Below, in pieces: positions 11,460-25,246 of a stretch of 64,000 bases of DNA; the first letter of the stretch is position 1; the number at the start of each line of letters is the position of its first letter. Under the pieces are notes generated by a model, which saw only the letters and a program-made list of their open reading frames with translations, was not told where the DNA came from and did no database searches. A program made the translations under genes and the position numbers. The DNA is from Escherichia coli O157:H7 (lineage in GTDB: Bacteria; Pseudomonadota; Gammaproteobacteria; Enterobacterales; Enterobacteriaceae): NCBI RefSeq assembly GCF_013167455.1, contig NZ_CP038328.1. The stretch is one strand, 5' to 3'.

Positions 11460-11722
11460 ATATTGCCGGATAAATTAAACGCCTCTGTCAGTAATGATGG
11501 GGGCGTTTTTATTTTGCGAGCAGCATTCCTGATTTTAAACGTGAACGCCGCTGGAAGAATTATCAGGTATAGAATGGCGTCGGGTGCTTGAGGCTGTCTG
11601 GCGTTAAGCATTCGCGAGGTTCCAGATGGACAAAAGCCCCAGGCGATATTTCTATCAACCTGAGGCTCGCGTTCGAACGTAGCAATTCGGATGTTAGTCT
11701 CTTCTTTGCAGGGAGGCAAGAC

Positions 11723-11875
11723 ATGCTAACAAAATATGCCCTTGTGGCAATCATAGTACTGTGTTGTACAGTACTGGGATTCACGCTCATGGTAGGCGAC
11801 TCGTTATGTGAGTTGAGTATCAGAGAGCGTGGTATGGAGTTTAAGGCAGTTCTCGCTTACGAATCGAAGAAGTAG
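11723..11875 (+). CDS. Hok/Gef-family type I toxin (small membrane peptide), hokX-like position
   Basis: 50-aa [53 protein letters not shown]; Hok-like TM segment plus SLCE...AYE motif; GC stem-loop follows. Confidence 0.7.
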
Positions 11876-11880
11876 CCACC

Positions 11881-11902
11881 ACGCGGGGGTAAAACCCCGC
11901 GT
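11881..11902 (+). terminator. stem-loop at 3' end of hok-like transcript
   Basis: acgcgggggtaaaaccccgcgt inverted repeat. Confidence 0.4.
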
Positions 11903-12066
11903 ATTGAATTGTGATGGTTTGGTCTCCTGTACCCTTTTTTAAATTTATATTTTTTATGTGAATATATAGTCTCTATTTATCATTATGAATTTCAAATGAA
12001 AATCATTAATTTATTCATAATATAAATGTTTATTGGCTGATATATATCACAGATAATTTTTAAAAT

Positions 12067-14766
12067 ATGCGTAAATATCCTTTAAGTTTACTGAAGGATA
12101 AAAATATTGTGACTTTCTTTGATTTCTGGGGAAAAACCCGACGTGGCGAGAAAGAGGGTGGCGACGGCTATCACCTTCTTTGCTGGCATTCGCTGGATGT
12201 GGCCGCAATGGGCTATTTAATGGTTAAAAGAAATTGCTTCGGGCTGGCTGATTACTTTCGTCAATTAGGGATTTCTGACAAGGAACAGGCGGCTCAATTT
12301 TTCGCTTGGTTGCTGTGCTGGCACGATATTGGAAAATTTGCCCGCTCTTTTCAGCAACTTTACCTGGCCCCTGAACTCAAGATTCCGGAAGGTTCCAGAA
12401 AGAATTACGAAAAGATCTCTCATTCAACGCTGGGTTACTGGCTGTGGAATTATTATTTAAGTGAATGTGAGGAGTTGCTTCCTTCATCTTCACTCTCTTC
12501 TCGTAAACTTACACGTGTAATAGAGATGTGGATGTCCATAACTACCGGGCATCATGGTCGACCACCTGACCGTATTGATGAGCTGGATAATTTTCTGCCT
12601 GAAGACAAAGCTGCCGCGCGAGATTTTCTCCTTGAAATCAAGGCACTGTTTCCGCTCATAGAGATTCCCACATTCTGGGATGATGACGAGGGCGTTGAAC
12701 TTTTAAAACAACTTTCCTGGTATATCTCTGCAACAGTCGTACTCGCAGACTGGACGGGTTCGTCAACGCGATTTTTTCCACGCGTCGCACACCCAATGGA
12801 TATTAAAGATTACTGGCAGAAAACTTTAGTTCAGGCTCAAAACGCCTTAACCGTCTTTCCTCCAAAAGCAGAAACCGCACCTTTCACCGGAATTAATACG
12901 CTGTTTCCTTTTATTGAGCACCCGACACCATTACAGCAAAAGGTACTGGATCTGGATATCAGCCAGCCAGGGCCACAGTTATTTATTCTGGAAGACGTGA
13001 CTGGCGCAGGTAAAACAGAAGCGGCGCTTATCCTGGCGCACAGGTTGATGGCTGCGAGGAAAGCACAGGGTTTGTTTTTTGGCCTGCCAACAATGGCAAC
13101 GGCCAATGCCATGTACGATCGGCTGGTCAAAACCTGGCTTGCTTTCTATTCGCCAGAGTCCCGCCCCAGCTTGGTGCTGGCACACAGTGCCCGCACATTA
13201 ATGGACCGCTTCAATGAATCACTCTGGTCCGGTGATTTAGTCGGGTCAGAAGAACCGGATGAACAAACATTCAGTCAGGGATGTGCGGCCTGGTTTGCCA
13301 ACAGTAACAAGAAGGCGCTACTGGCTGAAATTGGCGTCGGCACGCTGGATCAGGCGATGATGGCAGTGATGCCGTTTAAACATAATAATCTGCGGCTTCT
13401 GGGGTTGAGTAACAAAATCCTGCTGGCTGATGAGATCCATGCCTGTGATGCTTACATGTCGTGCATTCTTGAAGGGCTGATCGAGCGGCAGGCGCGTGGC
13501 GGAAACAGCGTCATTTTGCTTTCTGCTACGTTATCCCAACAGCAGCGCGACAAACTCGTCGCCGCCTTTGCGCGTGGCACAGAGGGCCAGCAAGAAGCTC
13601 CGTTCCTTGAAAAGGATGATTACCCCTGGCTGACGCATGTCACGAAATCCGATGTGAACTCACACCGGGTAGCGACGCGCAAAGACGTTGAGCGTAGCGT
13701 CAGCGTGGGTTGGCTTCATAGTGAACAAGAGAGTATTGCGCGTATCGAATCGGCGGTAAGTCAGGGAAAATGCATCGCCTGGATCCGGAATTCTGTCGAT
13801 GACGCTATTAAGGTTCATCGTCAGCTGCTTGCCCGCGGCGTCATTCCCGCTTCCAGCCTTTCACTCTTTCATAGCCGCTTTGCTTTTAGCGATCGCCAGC
13901 GAATTGAAATGGAGACGCTGGCACGCTTTGGTAAAGAAGACGGTTCACAGCGTGCCGGAAAAGTCCTCATTTGTACTCAGGTCTTAGAGCAGAGCGTTGA
14001 TTGTGACCTGGACGAAATGATCTCCGACCTGGCCCCTGTTGATTTGCTGATTCAGCGAGCGGGGCGATTACAGCGGCATATCCGCGATATTAATGGTCAG
14101 TTAAAGCGTGACGGAAAAGACGAGCGTTCCCCTCCTGAATTGCTGATTCTGGCCCCCGTCTGGGACGACGCTCCTGGTGACGAATGGTTCGGCAGTGCCA
14201 TGCGTAACAGTGCATATGTCTATCCCGATCATGGACGAATCTGGCTGACGCAGCGTGTACTGCGTGAGCAAGGCGCTATTCAAATGCCACACGCAGCCCG
14301 CCTTCTTATTGAATCAGTCTACGGTGAGGACGTGGTAATGCCGGAAGGATTTGCCCGCAGCGAGCAGGAGCAAGTGGGCAAATATTACTGCGATCGCGCA
14401 ATGGCTAAAAAGTTTGTCCTGAACTTCAAGCCTGGCTATGCCGCCAATATCAACGATTACCTTCCGGAAAAGCTGTCGACACGTCTGGCTGAGGAATCTG
14501 TTTCCCTGTGGCTGGCTACCTGTATTGCCGGTGTGGTGAAGCCTTATGCCACCGGTGCTCACGCATGGGAAATGAGCGTTGTCAGAGTGCGTCGAAGCTG
14601 GTGGAAAAAACATCGGGATGAGTTTTCTTTACTGGAAGGGGAAGCGTTCAGGCAGTGGTGCATTGAACAGCGGCAAGATCCGGAAATGGCAAACGTGATT
14701 TTAGTCACTGATGACGAAAGTTGCGGGTATTCGGCCAGGGAGGGATTGATTGGCAAGGTTGATTGA
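12067..14766 (+). CDS. cas3: Cas3 HD nuclease/helicase (type I-E)
   Basis: 899-aa ORF; HD motif (LLCWHDIGKF), Walker A (GAGKTEAA), DEIH; alternative GTG start at 12109 possible. Confidence 0.9.
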   Translation: MRKYPLSLLKDKNIVTFFDFWGKTRRGEKEGGDGYHLLCWHSLDVAAMGYLMVKRNCFGLADYFRQLGISDKEQAAQFFAWLLCWHDIGKFARSFQQLYLAPELKIPEGSRKNYEKISHSTLGYWLWNYYLSECEELLPSSSLSSRKLTRVIEMWMSITTGHHGRPPDRIDELDNFLPEDKAAARDFLLEIKALFPLIEIPTFWDDDEGVELLKQLSWYISATVVLADWTGSSTRFFPRVAHPMDIKDYWQKTLVQAQNALTVFPPKAETAPFTGINTLFPFIEHPTPLQQKVLDLDISQPGPQLFILEDVTGAGKTEAALILAHRLMAARKAQGLFFGLPTMATANAMYDRLVKTWLAFYSPESRPSLVLAHSARTLMDRFNESLWSGDLVGSEEPDEQTFSQGCAAWFANSNKKALLAEIGVGTLDQAMMAVMPFKHNNLRLLGLSNKILLADEIHACDAYMSCILEGLIERQARGGNSVILLSATLSQQQRDKLVAAFARGTEGQQEAPFLEKDDYPWLTHVTKSDVNSHRVATRKDVERSVSVGWLHSEQESIARIESAVSQGKCIAWIRNSVDDAIKVHRQLLARGVIPASSLSLFHSRFAFSDRQRIEMETLARFGKEDGSQRAGKVLICTQVLEQSVDCDLDEMISDLAPVDLLIQRAGRLQRHIRDINGQLKRDGKDERSPPELLILAPVWDDAPGDEWFGSAMRNSAYVYPDHGRIWLTQRVLREQGAIQMPHAARLLIESVYGEDVVMPEGFARSEQEQVGKYYCDRAMAKKFVLNFKPGYAANINDYLPEKLSTRLAEESVSLWLATCIAGVVKPYATGAHAWEMSVVRVRRSWWKKHRDEFSLLEGEAFRQWCIEQRQDPEMANVILVTDDESCGYSAREGLIGKVD

Positions 14767-18783: not shown

Positions 18784-19411
18784 CCTTACATACCGGCCAG
18801 CTTTCGCCTGCGCAGTTGCTGCATTTGGTGGATCGCGGGGAATATGTGATGCATCAGTGGCTGTGGGATCTCTTCCCTGGCGGCAAAGAAAGGCAATTTC
18901 TTTATCGTCGGGAAGAACTCCAGGGCGCGTTTCGCTTTTTTGTACTGTCGCAGGAACGCCCGGCGGAAAGTGAAACGTTCACCATCGAATGCCGGTCATT
19001 TGTGCCCGAGCTGCGTACCGGACAACAACTTTGTTTCAACCTGCGGGCGAATCCAACAATCTGTAAAGCGGGCAAGCGCCACGATCTGCTGATGGAGGCG
19101 AAACGGCAGGTGAGGGGGCAGGCGGAAGGAAGTGATGTCTGGTTGCATCAACAACAGGCGGCGCTGGACTGGCTGGCAGCGCAGGGGGAGAGAAGCGGTT
19201 TTACACTGCTGGATACCTCGGTTGATGCCTACCGACAACAGCAACTGCGGCGGGAAAACTCCCGGCAACTGATCCAGTTCAGTAGCGTGGATTATACGGG
19301 GATGCTTACGGTCACCGATCCCGGGTTATTTCTGCAACGTCTCAGTCAGGGGTATGGCAAAAGCCGCGCGTTCGGCTGTGGTCTGATGCTGATCAAACCC
19401 GGAGCAGAGGT

Positions 19412-19415
<4 letters not shown>
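18765..19415 (+). CDS. casE: Cas6e/CasE crRNA endoribonuclease
   Basis: ORF 18627..19415; ATG 18765 after AAGGAGG; 216 aa. Confidence 0.85.
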
Positions 19416-20625
<1,210 letters not shown>

Positions 20626-20720
20626 GTTATGTGTTCTTTAAAAATAAGGAAATGTTTGAATTTAGTTGGTAGATTGTTGATGTGGAATAAATTTGTTTAA
20701 AAACAGATATGTATGCTTAG
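20626..20720 (+). promoter_or_regulatory. CRISPR leader (AT-rich)
   Basis: 95-bp AT-rich stretch between cas2 stop and first repeat. Confidence 0.7.
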
Positions 20721-20993
20721 TGTGTTCCCCGCGCCAGCGGGGATAAACCGTCACCAAAACAGTGACAAAAACTGTCACCAAAGTGTTCCCCGCGCCAGCG
20801 GGGATAAACCGCTCATATTCGGATTGATCGTGTGTTTCGGTTTGTGTTCCCCGCGCCAGCGGGGATAAACCGGCCCAGGGATTTGTTCAATCCAGCGTGC
20901 CGCTGTGTTCCCCGCATCAGCGGGGATAAACCGGGCGCACTGGATGCGATGATGGATATCACTTAGAATTCCCCGCCCCTGCGGTAGAACACC
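20721..20993 (+). CRISPR. Type I-E CRISPR array: 4 full 29-bp repeats, four 32-bp spacers, degenerate terminal repeat
   Basis: Repeat GTGTTCCCCGCGCCAGCGGGGATAAACCG at 20721, 20782, 20843; variant at 20904 (GCATCA loop); degenerate copy 20965..20993. Confidence 0.95.
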
Positions 20994-21014
20994 CAGCTCC
21001 CATTTTCCAACCCA

Positions 21015-22052
21015 TCAAGACGCCTTCGCCAACTCCTTCACCAGCGGTAGCATTATCCGCATAACGTCACGGCAGCGACGTTCTATTCTTCCAGGAAGTG
21101 CTTTATCAATATGTTGCTGATTATCCAGTCTTACGTCATGCCAGCTATTTCCCGCAGGGAATGCGGCTGTTTTTGCGCGTTGCTGATAACCATCTTTATT
21201 CCCAAGATTCCAGTTTGTCGCTTCCACCGAAAGTACAGCAATGCCCGCTTTGTCGAATATTTCTGCGTCATTACAACATCCAGTGCCTTTCGGATAATTT
21301 TTATTCAAACCCGGATTGGTCGTTGCGGCAATTCCATGACTACGCGCAATTGCCAGCGCCCTGTCGCGCGTTAATTTCCTTACTGCTTCAGGGGTTTTTA
21401 CACCGCTGTTGAAATACAATTTATCGCCAACAATTAAGTTATCGAGATTAATCACCAGCAGCGTATTTTTCTTTTCGGTGTCACTCATCCGCTTGAGTAA
21501 ATTCTCAGCGCCTAATTTCCCTTCCTCTTCTCCACTGGTCGCCACAAATCGAATACCATACTCGGTAGGCGTATTTTTCAGGCGTTCTGCCAGTTCCAGC
21601 ATGACACCTAAACCTGCGGCGTTATCATCCATTCCTTGTAACGTCAGCCCGCCGAGATTGGCATCTGCATCTGCGTCGCTCTGCGGGGCATAGGTATCCA
21701 GATGCGCCATAATAATGATCTGCTGCGGCGCTTTGCCTTCATGAGCGGCAATCACCGTACTTCCCGTCACGTTGTGCCAGTTTTTGCGGTTATCGCGGGC
21801 GGTATAAATATATCGGCTATTAAACGTACGAATATCACTGCGGTAACCCATTTGCTGAAACTGTTGCCGAATATAATCGGCAGATAACATTTCTGCGGGT
21901 GTTCCGGTCATTCGTCCCGGAAAGAAAGTGGCAATATGTCGCGCCTGTGTATTGGCAAAATCGCCAGGTTTAGGTGACGAGGCGTGTACGGGGAGAATAA
22001 AGCATACGCCGAGCGCCAGGGCAGCGGTACGGTGGCGCAATGCGGAAAACAT
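21015..22052 (-). CDS. iap: alkaline phosphatase isozyme conversion aminopeptidase
   Basis: 345-aa ORF with signal peptide; position between CRISPR and cysD. Confidence 0.85.
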   Translation of the reverse strand: MFSALRHRTAALALGVCFILPVHASSPKPGDFANTQARHIATFFPGRMTGTPAEMLSADYIRQQFQQMGYRSDIRTFNSRYIYTARDNRKNWHNVTGSTVIAAHEGKAPQQIIIMAHLDTYAPQSDADADANLGGLTLQGMDDNAAGLGVMLELAERLKNTPTEYGIRFVATSGEEEGKLGAENLLKRMSDTEKKNTLLVINLDNLIVGDKLYFNSGVKTPEAVRKLTRDRALAIARSHGIAATTNPGLNKNYPKGTGCCNDAEIFDKAGIAVLSVEATNWNLGNKDGYQQRAKTAAFPAGNSWHDVRLDNQQHIDKALPGRIERRCRDVMRIMLPLVKELAKAS

Positions 22053-22303
22053 AGTGAGTCCTTAAATACCATGCAAATTTTTTTACCGCCATAGTATGAA
22101 ACTGCCGCTGCGCTAAAACAATTTCAAATCTTCCTAAACGCCCGAAATCCGGTGCCTTAAGCACTTTTTGATATTAGCTTTGCCAAATCGTTATTCCGTT
22201 AAGGAACTACTCATTCTAATTGGTAATTTCATTCGTTCTCTTACGCTCCCTATAGTCGAAACATCTGATGGCAAGAAAATAGCGGTATTGCAAAGGAACG
22301 GTT

Positions 22304-23212
22304 ATGGATCAAATACGACTTACTCACCTGCGGCAACTGGAGGCGGAAAGCATCCACATTATTCGCGAGGTGGCGGCAGAATTCTCAAATCCGGTGATGC
22401 TCTACTCTATCGGTAAAGATTCCAGCGTCATGCTGCATCTGGCGCGCAAGGCGTTTTATCCAGGTACGCTGCCTTTCCCGTTGCTGCATGTCGATACCGG
22501 CTGGAAATTCCGTGAGATGTATGAGTTCCGCGATCGTACGGCGAAAGCCTACGGCTGCGAGCTGCTGGTGCATCAAAACCCGGAAGGCGTGGCGATGGGG
22601 ATTAATCCATTCGTGCACGGCAGCGCGAAACATACCGATATTATGAAGACCGAAGGCCTGAAGCAGGCGCTGAATAAATACGGTTTTGATGCCGCCTTCG
22701 GTGGTGCGCGCCGCGACGAAGAGAAATCCCGTGCTAAAGAGCGTATCTACTCTTTCCGTGATCGCTTCCATCGCTGGGACCCGAAAAATCAGCGCCCGGA
22801 GCTGTGGCACAACTATAACGGGCAGATTAACAAAGGCGAAAGCATCCGCGTTTTCCCGCTCTCTAACTGGACCGAGCAGGATATCTGGCAATACATCTGG
22901 CTGGAAAATATCGACATTGTGCCGCTGTATCTCGCTGCGGAACGTCCGGTTCTGGAACGCGACGGTATGTTGATGATGATTGATGACAACCGTATCGACC
23001 TGCAACCGGGCGAAGTGATTAAAAAACGGATGGTGCGTTTCCGTACGCTGGGCTGCTGGCCGCTGACCGGTGCGGTGGAGTCAAATGCACAAACGCTGCC
23101 GGAGATCATCGAAGAGATGCTGGTTTCCACCACCAGTGAACGTCAGGGGCGCGTGATTGACCGCGACCAAGCTGGTTCTATGGAGCTGAAAAAACGTCAG
23201 GGGTATTTTTAA
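22304..23212 (+). CDS. cysD: sulfate adenylyltransferase subunit 2
   Basis: 302-aa ORF. Confidence 0.95.
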
Positions 23213-23213
23213 G

Positions 23214-24641
23214 ATGAACACCGCACTTGCACAACAAATCGCCAATGAAGGCGGCGTCGAAGCCTGGATGATTGCGCAACAACATAAAAGCCTGCTGCGT
23301 TTTCTGACCTGTGGTAGCGTCGATGACGGCAAAAGTACCCTGATTGGTCGTCTGTTGCACGATACCCGCCAAATCTATGAAGATCAGCTCTCATCGCTGC
23401 ATAATGACAGTAAGCGTCACGGCACCCAGGGCGAAAAGCTGGATCTGGCTCTGCTGGTGGACGGCCTGCAAGCTGAGCGTGAACAGGGCATCACCATTGA
23501 CGTGGCCTACCGCTATTTCTCTACCGAGAAGCGTAAATTTATTATCGCCGACACTCCAGGGCACGAGCAGTACACCCGCAATATGGCGACTGGCGCATCG
23601 ACATGTGAACTGGCGATCTTACTGATCGATGCCCGTAAAGGCGTGCTCGATCAAACCCGTCGTCACAGTTTTATCTCCACACTGTTGGGGATCAAACATC
23701 TGGTCGTGGCGATCAACAAAATGGATCTGGTGGATTACAGTGAAGAGACGTTCACCCGTATTCGTGAAGATTATCTGACCTTTGCCGGGCAGCTGCCGGG
23801 TAATCTGGATATCCGCTTTGTGCCGCTCTCCGCACTGGAAGGTGACAACGTGGCTTCGCAAAGTGAAAGTATGCCGTGGTACAGCGGTCCGACACTGCTC
23901 GAAGTGCTGGAAACCGTGGAGATTCAGCGAGTGGTGGATGCCCAGCCAATGCGCTTCCCGGTGCAGTACGTTAACCGCCCAAATCTCGATTTTCGTGGCT
24001 ACGCCGGAACGCTGGCATCCGGTCGCGTGGAAGTCGGGCAACGTGTAAAAGTGCTGCCCTCTGGTGTGGAATCAAACGTCGCGCGGATCGTGACTTTTGA
24101 TGGTGATCGCGAAGAAGCCTTTGCCGGAGAAGCTATCACCCTGGTGCTGACGGATGAGATCGACATCAGCCGTGGCGATCTGCTGCTGGCGGCAGACGAA
24201 GCGTTACCAGCTGTGCAGAGCGCGTCGGTGGATGTGGTATGGATGGCGGAACAGCCGCTTTCCCCGGGCCAGAGTTACGACATCAAAATTGCCGGTAAGA
24301 AGACGCGTTCTCGTGTTGATGGCATTCGTTATCAGGTTGATATTAATAACCTTACCCAACGCGAAGTTGAAAACCTGCCGCTGAACGGCATCGGCCTGGT
24401 GGATCTCACTTTTGACGAGCCACTGGTGTTAGATCGTTATCAGCAAAACCCGGTTACCGGTGGGCTGATTTTTATCGATCGCCTGAGCAATGTGACCGTA
24501 GGTGCCGGTATGGTGCATGAGCCAGTTAGCCAGGCAACTGCTGCGCCATCTGAATTTAGTGCATTCGAACTGGAATTGAATGCCCTGGTTCGCCGCCACT
24601 TTCCACACTGGGGCGCGCGCGATTTGCTGGGGGAGAAATAA
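23214..24641 (+). CDS. cysN: sulfate adenylyltransferase subunit 1 (GTPase)
   Basis: 475-aa ORF; GTP-binding motifs ([18 protein letters not shown]). Confidence 0.95.
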
Positions 24642-25246
24642 TGGCGCTGCATGACGAAAACGTCGTCTGGCATAGCCATCCGGTCACTGTGCAACAACGC
24701 GAGCTACACCACGGTCATCGTGGTGTAGTGCTGTGGTTTACCGGCCTCTCCGGGTCCGGTAAATCAACGGTCGCCGGGGCGCTGGAGGAGGCGTTACATA
24801 AACTCGGCGTCAGTACGTATCTGCTGGATGGCGACAATGTTCGCCACGGATTATGCAGCGATCTCGGTTTTAGCGATGCCGATCGTAAAGAGAATATCCG
24901 TCGCGTCGGTGAAGTGGCGAATTTGATGGTTGAAGCCGGACTGGTGGTGCTGACCGCATTTATCTCGCCACACCGCGCCGAACGCCAGATGGTTCGCGAA
25001 CGCGTAGGAGAAGGGCGCTTTATCGAAGTGTTTGTCGATACGCCGCTGGCGATTTGCGAAGCCCGCGATCCAAAAGGCTTATATAAGAAAGCGCGTGCCG
25101 GTGAACTGCGCAACTTTACGGGAATAGATTCCGTTTACGAAGCGCCTGAATCGGCAGAAATTCATCTCAATGGTGAACAATTAGTAACAAATTTGGTACA
25201 GCAATTATTAGATCTGTTGAGACAGAACGATATTATCAGATCCTGA
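24641..25246 (+). CDS. cysC: adenylylsulfate kinase
   Basis: 201-aa ORF; P-loop GLSGSGKST. Confidence 0.95.

Follow-up and report, generated by a model that had tools for sequence, protein, structure and literature searches.

The hokX/sokX type I toxin-antitoxin locus between cysH and cas3 of Escherichia coli O157:H7, very probably a chromosomal module independent of the cas genes

The hok mRNA of plasmid R1 pairs its two ends, is trimmed from the 3' side as far as a hairpin that halts trimming, and then refolds. In Haloarcula, the toxin-antitoxin RNA pair CreTA lies beside the cas genes and guards CRISPR-Cas: its CreA antitoxin is crRNA-like and needs Cascade to repress the toxin, so that loss of cas releases the toxin. 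On the E. coli chromosome, the locus adjacent to cysH has been published as hok/sokX or hokX (PMC12736100), and the name hokX was given to the copy between cysH and iap, which in E. coli B is broken by an insertion element (PMC7232551). The antisense gene sokX (b4701; 59 nt) is annotated between cysH and cas3 in K-12 MG1655; its RNA was seen in K-12 under all conditions tested (bioRxiv 10.1101/2024.06.20.599902), and in the O157 strain EDL933 a thin RNA-seq signal of 93 and 35 reads was recorded over the Rfam "sok_15/sokX" interval (PMC5331693). The module is already known, being a named and catalogued type I toxin-antitoxin system whose toxin has been tested before.

Here we analyze a 64,000-nt stretch of E. 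coli O157:H7 DNA (contig NZ_CP038328.1; hereafter the window), in which the first-pass annotation had called a hok/sok-like module between cysH and cas3. We conclude that the locus is very probably the known chromosomal hokX/sokX type I module and that it is independent of the cas genes. Its surroundings, in the order cysI, cysH, hok unit, cas3, casA to cas2, CRISPR array, iap, are as follows.

8939-10651: cysI
10725-11459: cysH, with its own intrinsic terminator at 11477-11508
12067-14766: cas3, a type I-E variant only ~29% identical to K-12 Cas3
downstream of cas3, last position 20625: casA through cas2
20722-20933: CRISPR array with four repeats
21015-22052, minus strand: iap

The cysH-cas3 intergenic region (11460-12066) is 100% identical in E. 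coli strain 2017C-4109, and the 360-nt hokX unit is likewise 100% identical in O157:H7 strain Z1830. At least part of the region is found in 5,425 of 5,426 complete E. coli genomes; the hokX unit is covered to at least 80% in 4,146 of them and partially in 5,415. Two Rfam matches at 11417-11517, one to ctRNA_p42d with 26 of the 50 bits required and one to Spot_42 with 21 of 80, were discarded as lying far below threshold; they coincide with the cysH terminator. Tandem Repeats Finder run on 19000-25000 returned nothing, and the short CRISPR array was found by a separate repeat search.

Four kinds of direct observation underlie our identification: the ORF and its leader belong to known families, the antisense gene could be placed, RNA helices are conserved, and the peptide is under purifying selection. 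The toxin and antisense features are listed here.

11723-11875, plus strand: hokX, a Hok/Gef membrane toxin of 50 aa (ATG 11723, TAG 11873-11875)
11711-11716, plus strand: hok Shine-Dalgarno sequence GGGAGG, 6 nt before the ATG, overlapping the sok -35 box on the opposite strand
11858-11861, plus strand: TACG at codon 46 (Tyr), phase 0, kept in 36 of 38 loci
11683-11626, minus strand: SokX antisense RNA, ~58 nt, with a single-stranded 5' tail, a long hairpin at ~11668-11634, and a U-rich 3' end
11691-11719, minus strand: sokX promoter (-35 TTGCCT at 11719-11714, 17-nt spacer, -10 TAACAT at 11696-11691)

The 50-aa ORF had been proposed as Hok/Gef from its sequence, and both Pfam and RefSeq agree: residues 5 to 46 of the peptide cover model positions 1 to 42 of 42 in HOK_GEF (PF01848; E = 6.3e-10), and RefSeq labels the ORF in a 100% identical genome "Hok/Gef family protein" (WP_000956458.1). 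Two NCBIfam Hok models hit the peptide below their curated cutoffs (NF007290, the HokA equivalog, 53 versus 89 bits; NF007279, the Hok subfamily, 39.5 versus 73), from which it follows that the peptide is not HokA and that neither model covers it. Comparison with Kluyvera and Lelliottia orthologues, at a synonymous divergence of 0.4 to 0.6, gave pN/pS values of 0.09 to 0.16; a ratio near 0.1 across genera indicates that the peptide itself is under purifying selection. The columns of GGGAGG are invariant across 38 loci. A 95-aa in-frame ORF starting from TTG 11588 was rejected, as its frame is broken in alleles with a 1-nt leader indel. That the peptide is toxic rests on the literature: in a 2026 preprint (10.1101/2025.08.07.668861), 42 of 45 overexpressed Hok peptides were toxic, the exceptions being 19_179, 60_1482, and 69_1540, and the window's peptide is identical to construct LRP171 / 46_982 of that screen, which is none of these three. 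TACG is also the sequence context in which TadA is reported to edit A to I in hokE, changing Tyr to Cys (bioRxiv 10.1101/2025.08.07.668861).

The leader (11582-11738) matches the Rfam family "sok" (RF01794) over its full length (1 to 157 of 157) on the hok-sense strand, with 105.3 bits against a gathering threshold of 59 (E = 1.8e-24). K-12 sokX aligns to the minus strand with 51 of 53 bases identical, placing the 5' end at ~11683 and the 3' end at 11626, and the RNA has a predicted folding energy of -23.7 kcal/mol. Together, the Pfam and Rfam matches and the alignment of K-12 sokX onto the leader bear out the call of a hok/sok-like module. The antisense promoter put forward earlier also holds: its hexamers are as described, and the -10 TAACAT sits 7 nt upstream of the aligned 5' end of the annotated K-12 sokX. 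Both hexamers are conserved in 14 cysH-linked loci. A consensus promoter scan with a threshold of 9 of 12 matches does not list this promoter because it has only 8. The scan did return a second promoter-like site on the minus strand (TTGCCA-16-TAGCAT, 11750-11723), which we rejected; K-12 expresses SokX without this DNA, and most relatives have CAGCAT in place of the proposed -10 TAGCAT. Thus, by alignment to K-12 sokX and by predicted fold, the locus has what characterizes a Sok-type RNA, namely, a cis-antisense transcript of ~60 nt with its own promoter and a terminator hairpin. Alleles read by eye have no consistent U-turn (YUNR) motif in the Sok-target loop.

The unit extends beyond the interval of 11590-11910 reported at first, running from TAGAAT at 11570-11575 to the T-run at 11935-11940. 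Its elements are as follows.

11570-11575, plus strand: TAGAAT, putative -10 box for transcription of hokX, 6 nt ahead of the conserved GGGTGC at the 5' end
11582-11940, plus strand: hokX mRNA unit in full, from the leader through the hok ORF to the 3' tail
11582-11595, plus strand: 5' element (tac-like), predicted to pair with the 3' end or, once trimming has occurred, inside the 5' hairpin
11881-11902, plus strand: GC-rich 3' hairpin, predicted in both folds
11921-11940, plus strand: end of the unit, formed by an fbi-like 3' fold-back element (11921-11934) and T6 (11935-11940)

These bounds come from an alignment of 14 cysH-linked copies from Escherichia, Pseudocitrobacter, Kluyvera, Lelliottia, and one further enterobacterium. 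Conservation begins at TAGAAT, 6 nt before an invariant GGGTGCTTGAGGC, and stops just after GCACCC and the T-run (~11940-11941) when compared with cas-less E. coli and other genera; 11582 is also where the RF01794 match starts. TAGAAT is kept in cysH-linked orthologues of several genera and the sequence upstream of it is not; we found no convincing -35 box for the hok promoter, and TAGAAT is absent from the output of the consensus scan. The unit has no local intrinsic terminator, its sole terminator-like feature being the long-range end-pairing helix with T6.

In the minimum-free-energy fold of 11582-11941, 11582-11595 pairs with 11921-11934, and GGGAGG is paired with 11698-11704. The end-pairing duplex, which in the O157 allele contains two G-U wobbles, has an energy of -19.8 kcal/mol, and none of 1,000 shuffled 3' tails did as well; in other cysH-linked Escherichia and Pseudocitrobacter alleles (L007-L013, L017) the pairing reaches -21.8 to -25.6 kcal/mol. 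In 48 loci of the hokX/hokE type, spread over many Enterobacteriaceae, a matching 3' element occurs 56 to 70 nt past the stop codon. We built an RNAalifold consensus on 38 such loci, in which the end pairing (pairs 1-6/373-378) is kept in 37. Because the changes in this helix are one-sided only, its support is conservation and energy, and we rejected compensatory covariation for it. Compensatory double changes do occur in the 5' hairpin, in the Sok-target hairpin, and in the 3' GC hairpin, where pair 318-337 has 11. The GC stem-loop that had been noticed after the ORF is located at 11881-11902 and retained with compensatory changes across the 38 loci; by analogy with R1, it would be the point at which 3' trimming stops. 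Pairing of a 5' tac with a 3' fbi element together with a stable hairpin, the closure typical of R1, is thus found in silico. No IS element interrupts the unit in the window, and from its sequence hokX/sokX here looks complete and uninterrupted.

All of the sequence features named in the first-pass annotation are present where it had placed them; one of them calls for another interpretation. The frames concerned are as follows.

11626-11682, plus strand: 18-codon mini-ORF (ATG 11626, TAG 11680-11682), with GAGG 6 nt upstream
11673-11729, plus strand: degenerate mok frame, with TCG for ATG, closed only by TAA 11727-11729 in overlap with the hok ATG

The mini-ORF had been assigned a mok-like position. 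The ORF and its Shine-Dalgarno sequence exist, but a mok-like role does not stand: the ATG is found in only 8 of 38 loci and lies in a covarying stem (alignment columns 48 to 50; pair 15-49 shows 16 double changes over the 38 loci), at the far (3') end of the Sok complement and inside the 5' hairpin stem. It is probably a by-product of the stem sequence and not mok. In K-12 mokB and mokC (the hokB and hokC loci), the ATG lies 9 to 11 nt inside the Sok 5' end and ~10 nt after GAGG. Here, GAGG is present at 11663-11666 and the mok-equivalent codon (11673-11675) is TCG; hokE has CTC at the canonical start position. The window retains an open mok frame yet not its start codon, and no frame in the hokX unit combines its own Shine-Dalgarno sequence and a start codon under the Sok 5' end with coupling to hok. 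An internal ATG at 11691 in the degenerate frame opens a 12-codon ORF (11691-11729), which we rejected as a coupling ORF: this ATG arises as the opposite strand of the sok -10 box; hokE-type loci have it in frame with hok, and three loci have ATA instead. Some Kluyvera and Klebsiella relatives do have an ATG at -50/-51 after GAGG. In an Enterobacter sp. locus (L019) and a Kluyvera locus (L020), the mok ATG opens an 18-codon frame ending in ATGCTGA across the hok start, and in a second Kluyvera locus (L023) and four Klebsiella loci the ATG is in frame with hok. Most hokE/hokX-type loci lack the canonical mok ATG and nevertheless keep the ORF, which suggests that Hok is translated in another way in this subfamily and that the loci are not decaying. 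The analysis thereby clarifies that the hokE/hokX subfamily is generally without a canonical mok start.

We consider an R1-like mechanism for hokX/sokX rather likely, reasoning from analogy. A weak promoter (-10 at 11570-11575) would give an mRNA of ~360 nt, from 11582 to ~11940, that would be inert in translation, with its 5' end paired to 11921-11934 and the hok ribosome-binding site buried. Slow 3' trimming to the GC hairpin at 11881-11902 would then free the 5' end for refolding, and an abundant, short-lived SokX (minus strand, 11683-11626) would pair with the leader and block expression or trigger decay. Should SokX drop, the 50-aa Hok peptide would enter the inner membrane and depolarize the cell. 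Within this scheme, the promoter, the trimming of the 3' end, and the way translation is controlled are inferred. The last of these is the weakest link: without the canonical mok start codon, translation of Hok must be direct or very inefficient.

What the cell gains from such a module is a separate question of physiology, and a chromosomal role unrelated to CRISPR, namely, abortive infection against phage, persister formation, or anti-addiction against plasmid hok/sok, would be compatible with the R1-like mechanism. We regard such a role as a tentative possibility, short of probable. Phage defense by R1 hok/sok and anti-addiction are both discussed for Hok systems (10.1101/2025.08.07.668861), and long-term retention with purifying selection implies some benefit; no feature of the window bears on phage, persister, or anti-addiction roles, however, and hok genes are not enriched near defense genes, with 12% lying within 20 kb of defense systems against 9.4% expected (10.1101/2025.08.07.668861).

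We think it unlikely that the locus is an inert relic, complete in appearance, whose Hok is never made because the mok start is lost and whose conservation reflects RNA selection or linkage to cysH. The canonical mok ATG is indeed gone here and kept in some Kluyvera and Klebsiella relatives, and E. coli tolerates both IS insertion (~15% of genomes) and deletion of the hok ORF (22%). Chromosomal hokA, hokB, and hokC, the loci tested so far according to work cited in the preprint, are reported as inactive for post-segregational killing (10.1101/2025.08.07.668861). Yet pN/pS near 0.1 across genera is a mark of purifying selection on the peptide, a strong ribosome-binding site, GGGAGG, precedes the hok ATG by 6 nt, and expression of the identical peptide is toxic (10.1101/2025.08.07.668861). 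Loss of the canonical mok ATG is, moreover, shared by most hokE/hokX-type loci that retain the ORF.

To place the preferred reading, that of a chromosomal module independent of cas, in its genomic context, the junctions in 5,426 complete E. coli genomes were classified and counted via BLAST coverage.

2,239 genomes: hokX followed by this cas3 variant, contiguous
1,130 genomes: hokX followed directly by iap, with no cas genes and no array
~780-840 genomes: hokX interrupted in the GC hairpin by an element of the IS186/IS421 family, followed by cas3
1,173 genomes: K-12-type junction, in which everything after the hok ATG is replaced by the DNA upstream of K-12-type cas3 and sokX is kept

An example of the interrupted class is an IS421 inserted in the GC hairpin of one locus (L005). 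The arrangement cysH-hokX-iap without cas also occurs in E. whittamii, Pseudocitrobacter, Kluyvera, and Lelliottia; hence, judging from these sequences, hokX is part of the conserved chromosome backbone into which the island is set. In the cas-less E. coli genomes, the break coincides precisely with the point where the hok unit ends on its 3' side. The near-isogenic strain NCCP 13918 lacks exactly 11545-14690 (3,146 bp), between flanks that share 8 bp of microhomology and are otherwise 100% identical; the deletion takes out all of hok/sok and nearly all of cas3, and since the strain is viable, loss of the module is survivable in this background.

Two readings would nonetheless tie the locus to CRISPR-Cas. 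With no local intrinsic terminator to close the hokX unit, transcripts started at the hokX promoter could run on and add to cas3 expression, subject to SokX pairing and to the folding state of the mRNA. The argument gains strength in the 1,173 K-12-type genomes: the hok promoter, leader, and Sok target are joined there to cas3 at a distance of 92 nt upstream, so that SokX could act as an antisense regulator of the cas3 5' untranslated region. We hold this to be very improbable; if true, a toxin-antitoxin remnant would be a co-opted regulator of CRISPR interference and not a stabilizer of the island.

The other reading, raised with the first-pass annotation, is that hokX/sokX is an addiction module stabilizing the adjacent type I-E island in a manner comparable to CreTA. 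The unit does end 126 nt ahead of the cas3 ATG, and all sampled genomes with this cas3 variant carry hokX (the 2,239 contiguous genomes and the IS-interrupted class); a deletion that halts at the hok 3' end, also taken in its favor, is explained equally well by an island boundary at that point. Against it, among the 5,426 genomes and the other genera the module is not co-inherited with the cas genes: hokX occurs without the island in 1,130 genomes, the K-12-type island occurs without the hok ORF in 1,173, and the other genera with cysH-hokX-iap have no cas. Loss of the island alone spares both hok and sok, so that no killing is expected, and NCCP 13918 survived the loss of hok/sok together with cas3. 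The CRISPR repeat is confined to the array at 20722-20933, even with 3 mismatches allowed, and since the hokX unit contains no such sequence, it cannot be a Cascade-dependent antitoxin. With hok genes also not enriched near defense systems in general (10.1101/2025.08.07.668861), the idea of a toxin-antitoxin pair guarding the E. coli CRISPR-Cas island is contradicted by its distribution and extremely unlikely; proximity to cas3 is neighborhood and not function.

Compared with CreTA, then, the antitoxin of hokX is an ordinary cis-antisense RNA without a CRISPR repeat, and the module is widespread without cas. The likeness to R1 hok/sok (parB) is closer: both have a membrane toxin of ~50 aa and a cis-antisense RNA of ~60 nt directed against the leader, and in both the full-length mRNA closes by pairing of its two ends and has a GC hairpin ahead of its 3' tail, features that for hokX are predicted. 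hokX differs from R1 in being chromosomal and vertically inherited and in lacking a mok ORF that has a start codon of its own controlled by Sok. The closest named paralogue is K-12 hokE/sokE, whose peptide is identical to that of hokX at 39 of 50 positions. Both leaders begin with GGGTGC, both loci are without a canonical mok ATG and have TACG as part of codon 46, and Sok is similarly placed relative to hok, its 5' end lying 44 nt before the ATG in hokE and 40 nt before it here. They differ in the upstream ATG, which is in frame with hok in hokE and out of frame in hokX; hokE, moreover, lies at a different locus, adjoining ybdK, and in K-12 is severed from its 3' element by IS186 in the GC hairpin.

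The value of the analysis lies mainly in correct annotation, with the mok-like mini-ORF read as an accident of a structured stem. The first-pass annotation had also placed a hokX/sokX locus at this position in K-12, which is half right: sokX (b4701) is indeed there with a remnant hokX, at the same site between cysH and cas3, but the K-12 hok ORF is deleted from just after its ATG. K-12 and the window are ~95-96% identical over the promoter region, the leader, and Sok, as far as the hok ATG. Just past the ATG the homology ends, the hok ORF and 3' tail are lost in K-12, and K-12-type cas3 follows 92 nt on, whereas the window, unlike K-12, has the full hok ORF, the hairpin, and the fold-back element.

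K-12-type genomes, which make up 1,173 of the 5,426 complete E. coli genomes searched, retain the promoter of hokX together with its leader, the Sok target (the leader stretch complementary to the antisense RNA SokX), and the hok ATG (K-12 loci L002/L003 compared with window 11460-11725). This 5' portion lies 92 nt from the K-12-type cas3 ATG, and no obvious terminator is present in that 92-nt interval between the hokX remnant and cas3. Since the promoter, leader, and Sok target are thus fused upstream of cas3, transcripts from the hokX promoter could, on the basis of this arrangement, reach into cas3 and come under the influence of SokX.

The window itself carries a different type I-E variant, whose cas3 is preceded by the following interval:

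11942-12066: spacer of 125 nt, very AT-rich, from the end of the hok unit to the cas3 ATG

Promoter-like matches within this spacer are all weak, and one of them ends at 12066, flush against the cas3 ATG. A cas3 promoter for this variant is not evident from sequence. At the other end of the island is a further element:

20722-20984: CRISPR array, very short, directly before iap

Three of its repeats, each 29 nt, are exact, the fourth departs from them at 2 positions, and the fifth is degenerate; the spacing is 61 nt. Strain NCCP 13918 (L006), with an otherwise identical O157-like background, has a clean 3,146-bp deletion bounded by 8-bp microhomologies (equivalent to window 11545-14690), by which hokX/sokX and nearly all of cas3 are lost, with casA and the genes downstream intact.

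In ~780 to 840 E. coli genomes, an IS186/IS421-family element is inserted in the GC hairpin 3' of hokX (window 11888-11898; positions 4430-4640 of the IS421-bearing locus L005), with a common insertion point, …CCC^ATAAGCGCTAACTTAAGGGTTG. K-12 hokC and hokE (L063 and L065) have elements of this family inserted downstream at the equivalent hairpin point; thus, the hok 3' hairpin looks like a recurrent IS186 target. Every such insertion cuts the hok mRNA off from its own 3' fold-back element. At two positions of the fold-back element, 11923 and 11930, the O157-type allele has T versus C in most alleles, so that the end-pairing helix contains two G-U wobbles in place of G-C pairs. The computed helix energy is -19.8 kcal/mol, versus -21.8 to -25.6 kcal/mol for the remaining cysH-linked alleles of Escherichia and Pseudocitrobacter (L007-L013 and L017).

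The cysH and hokX genes of three Pseudocitrobacter records (L010, L011, and L012) are 97 to 99% identical to their E. coli counterparts, far above the expectation for separate genera; iap is only ~81% identical in L010 and L012. This suggests either recent transfer of the cysH-hokX segment or contamination or mis-binning.

Within the hokX ORF lies the following codon:

11858-11861, + strand: hokX codon 46 (Tyr), TAC followed by G, within the conserved CTTACGAA

Two relatives (L040 and L058) encode Cys (TGC) outright at this codon. At hokE, TadA A-to-I editing in a TACG context, changing Tyr to Cys, has been reported (bioRxiv 10.1101/2025.08.07.668861), and hokX codon 46 has this context.
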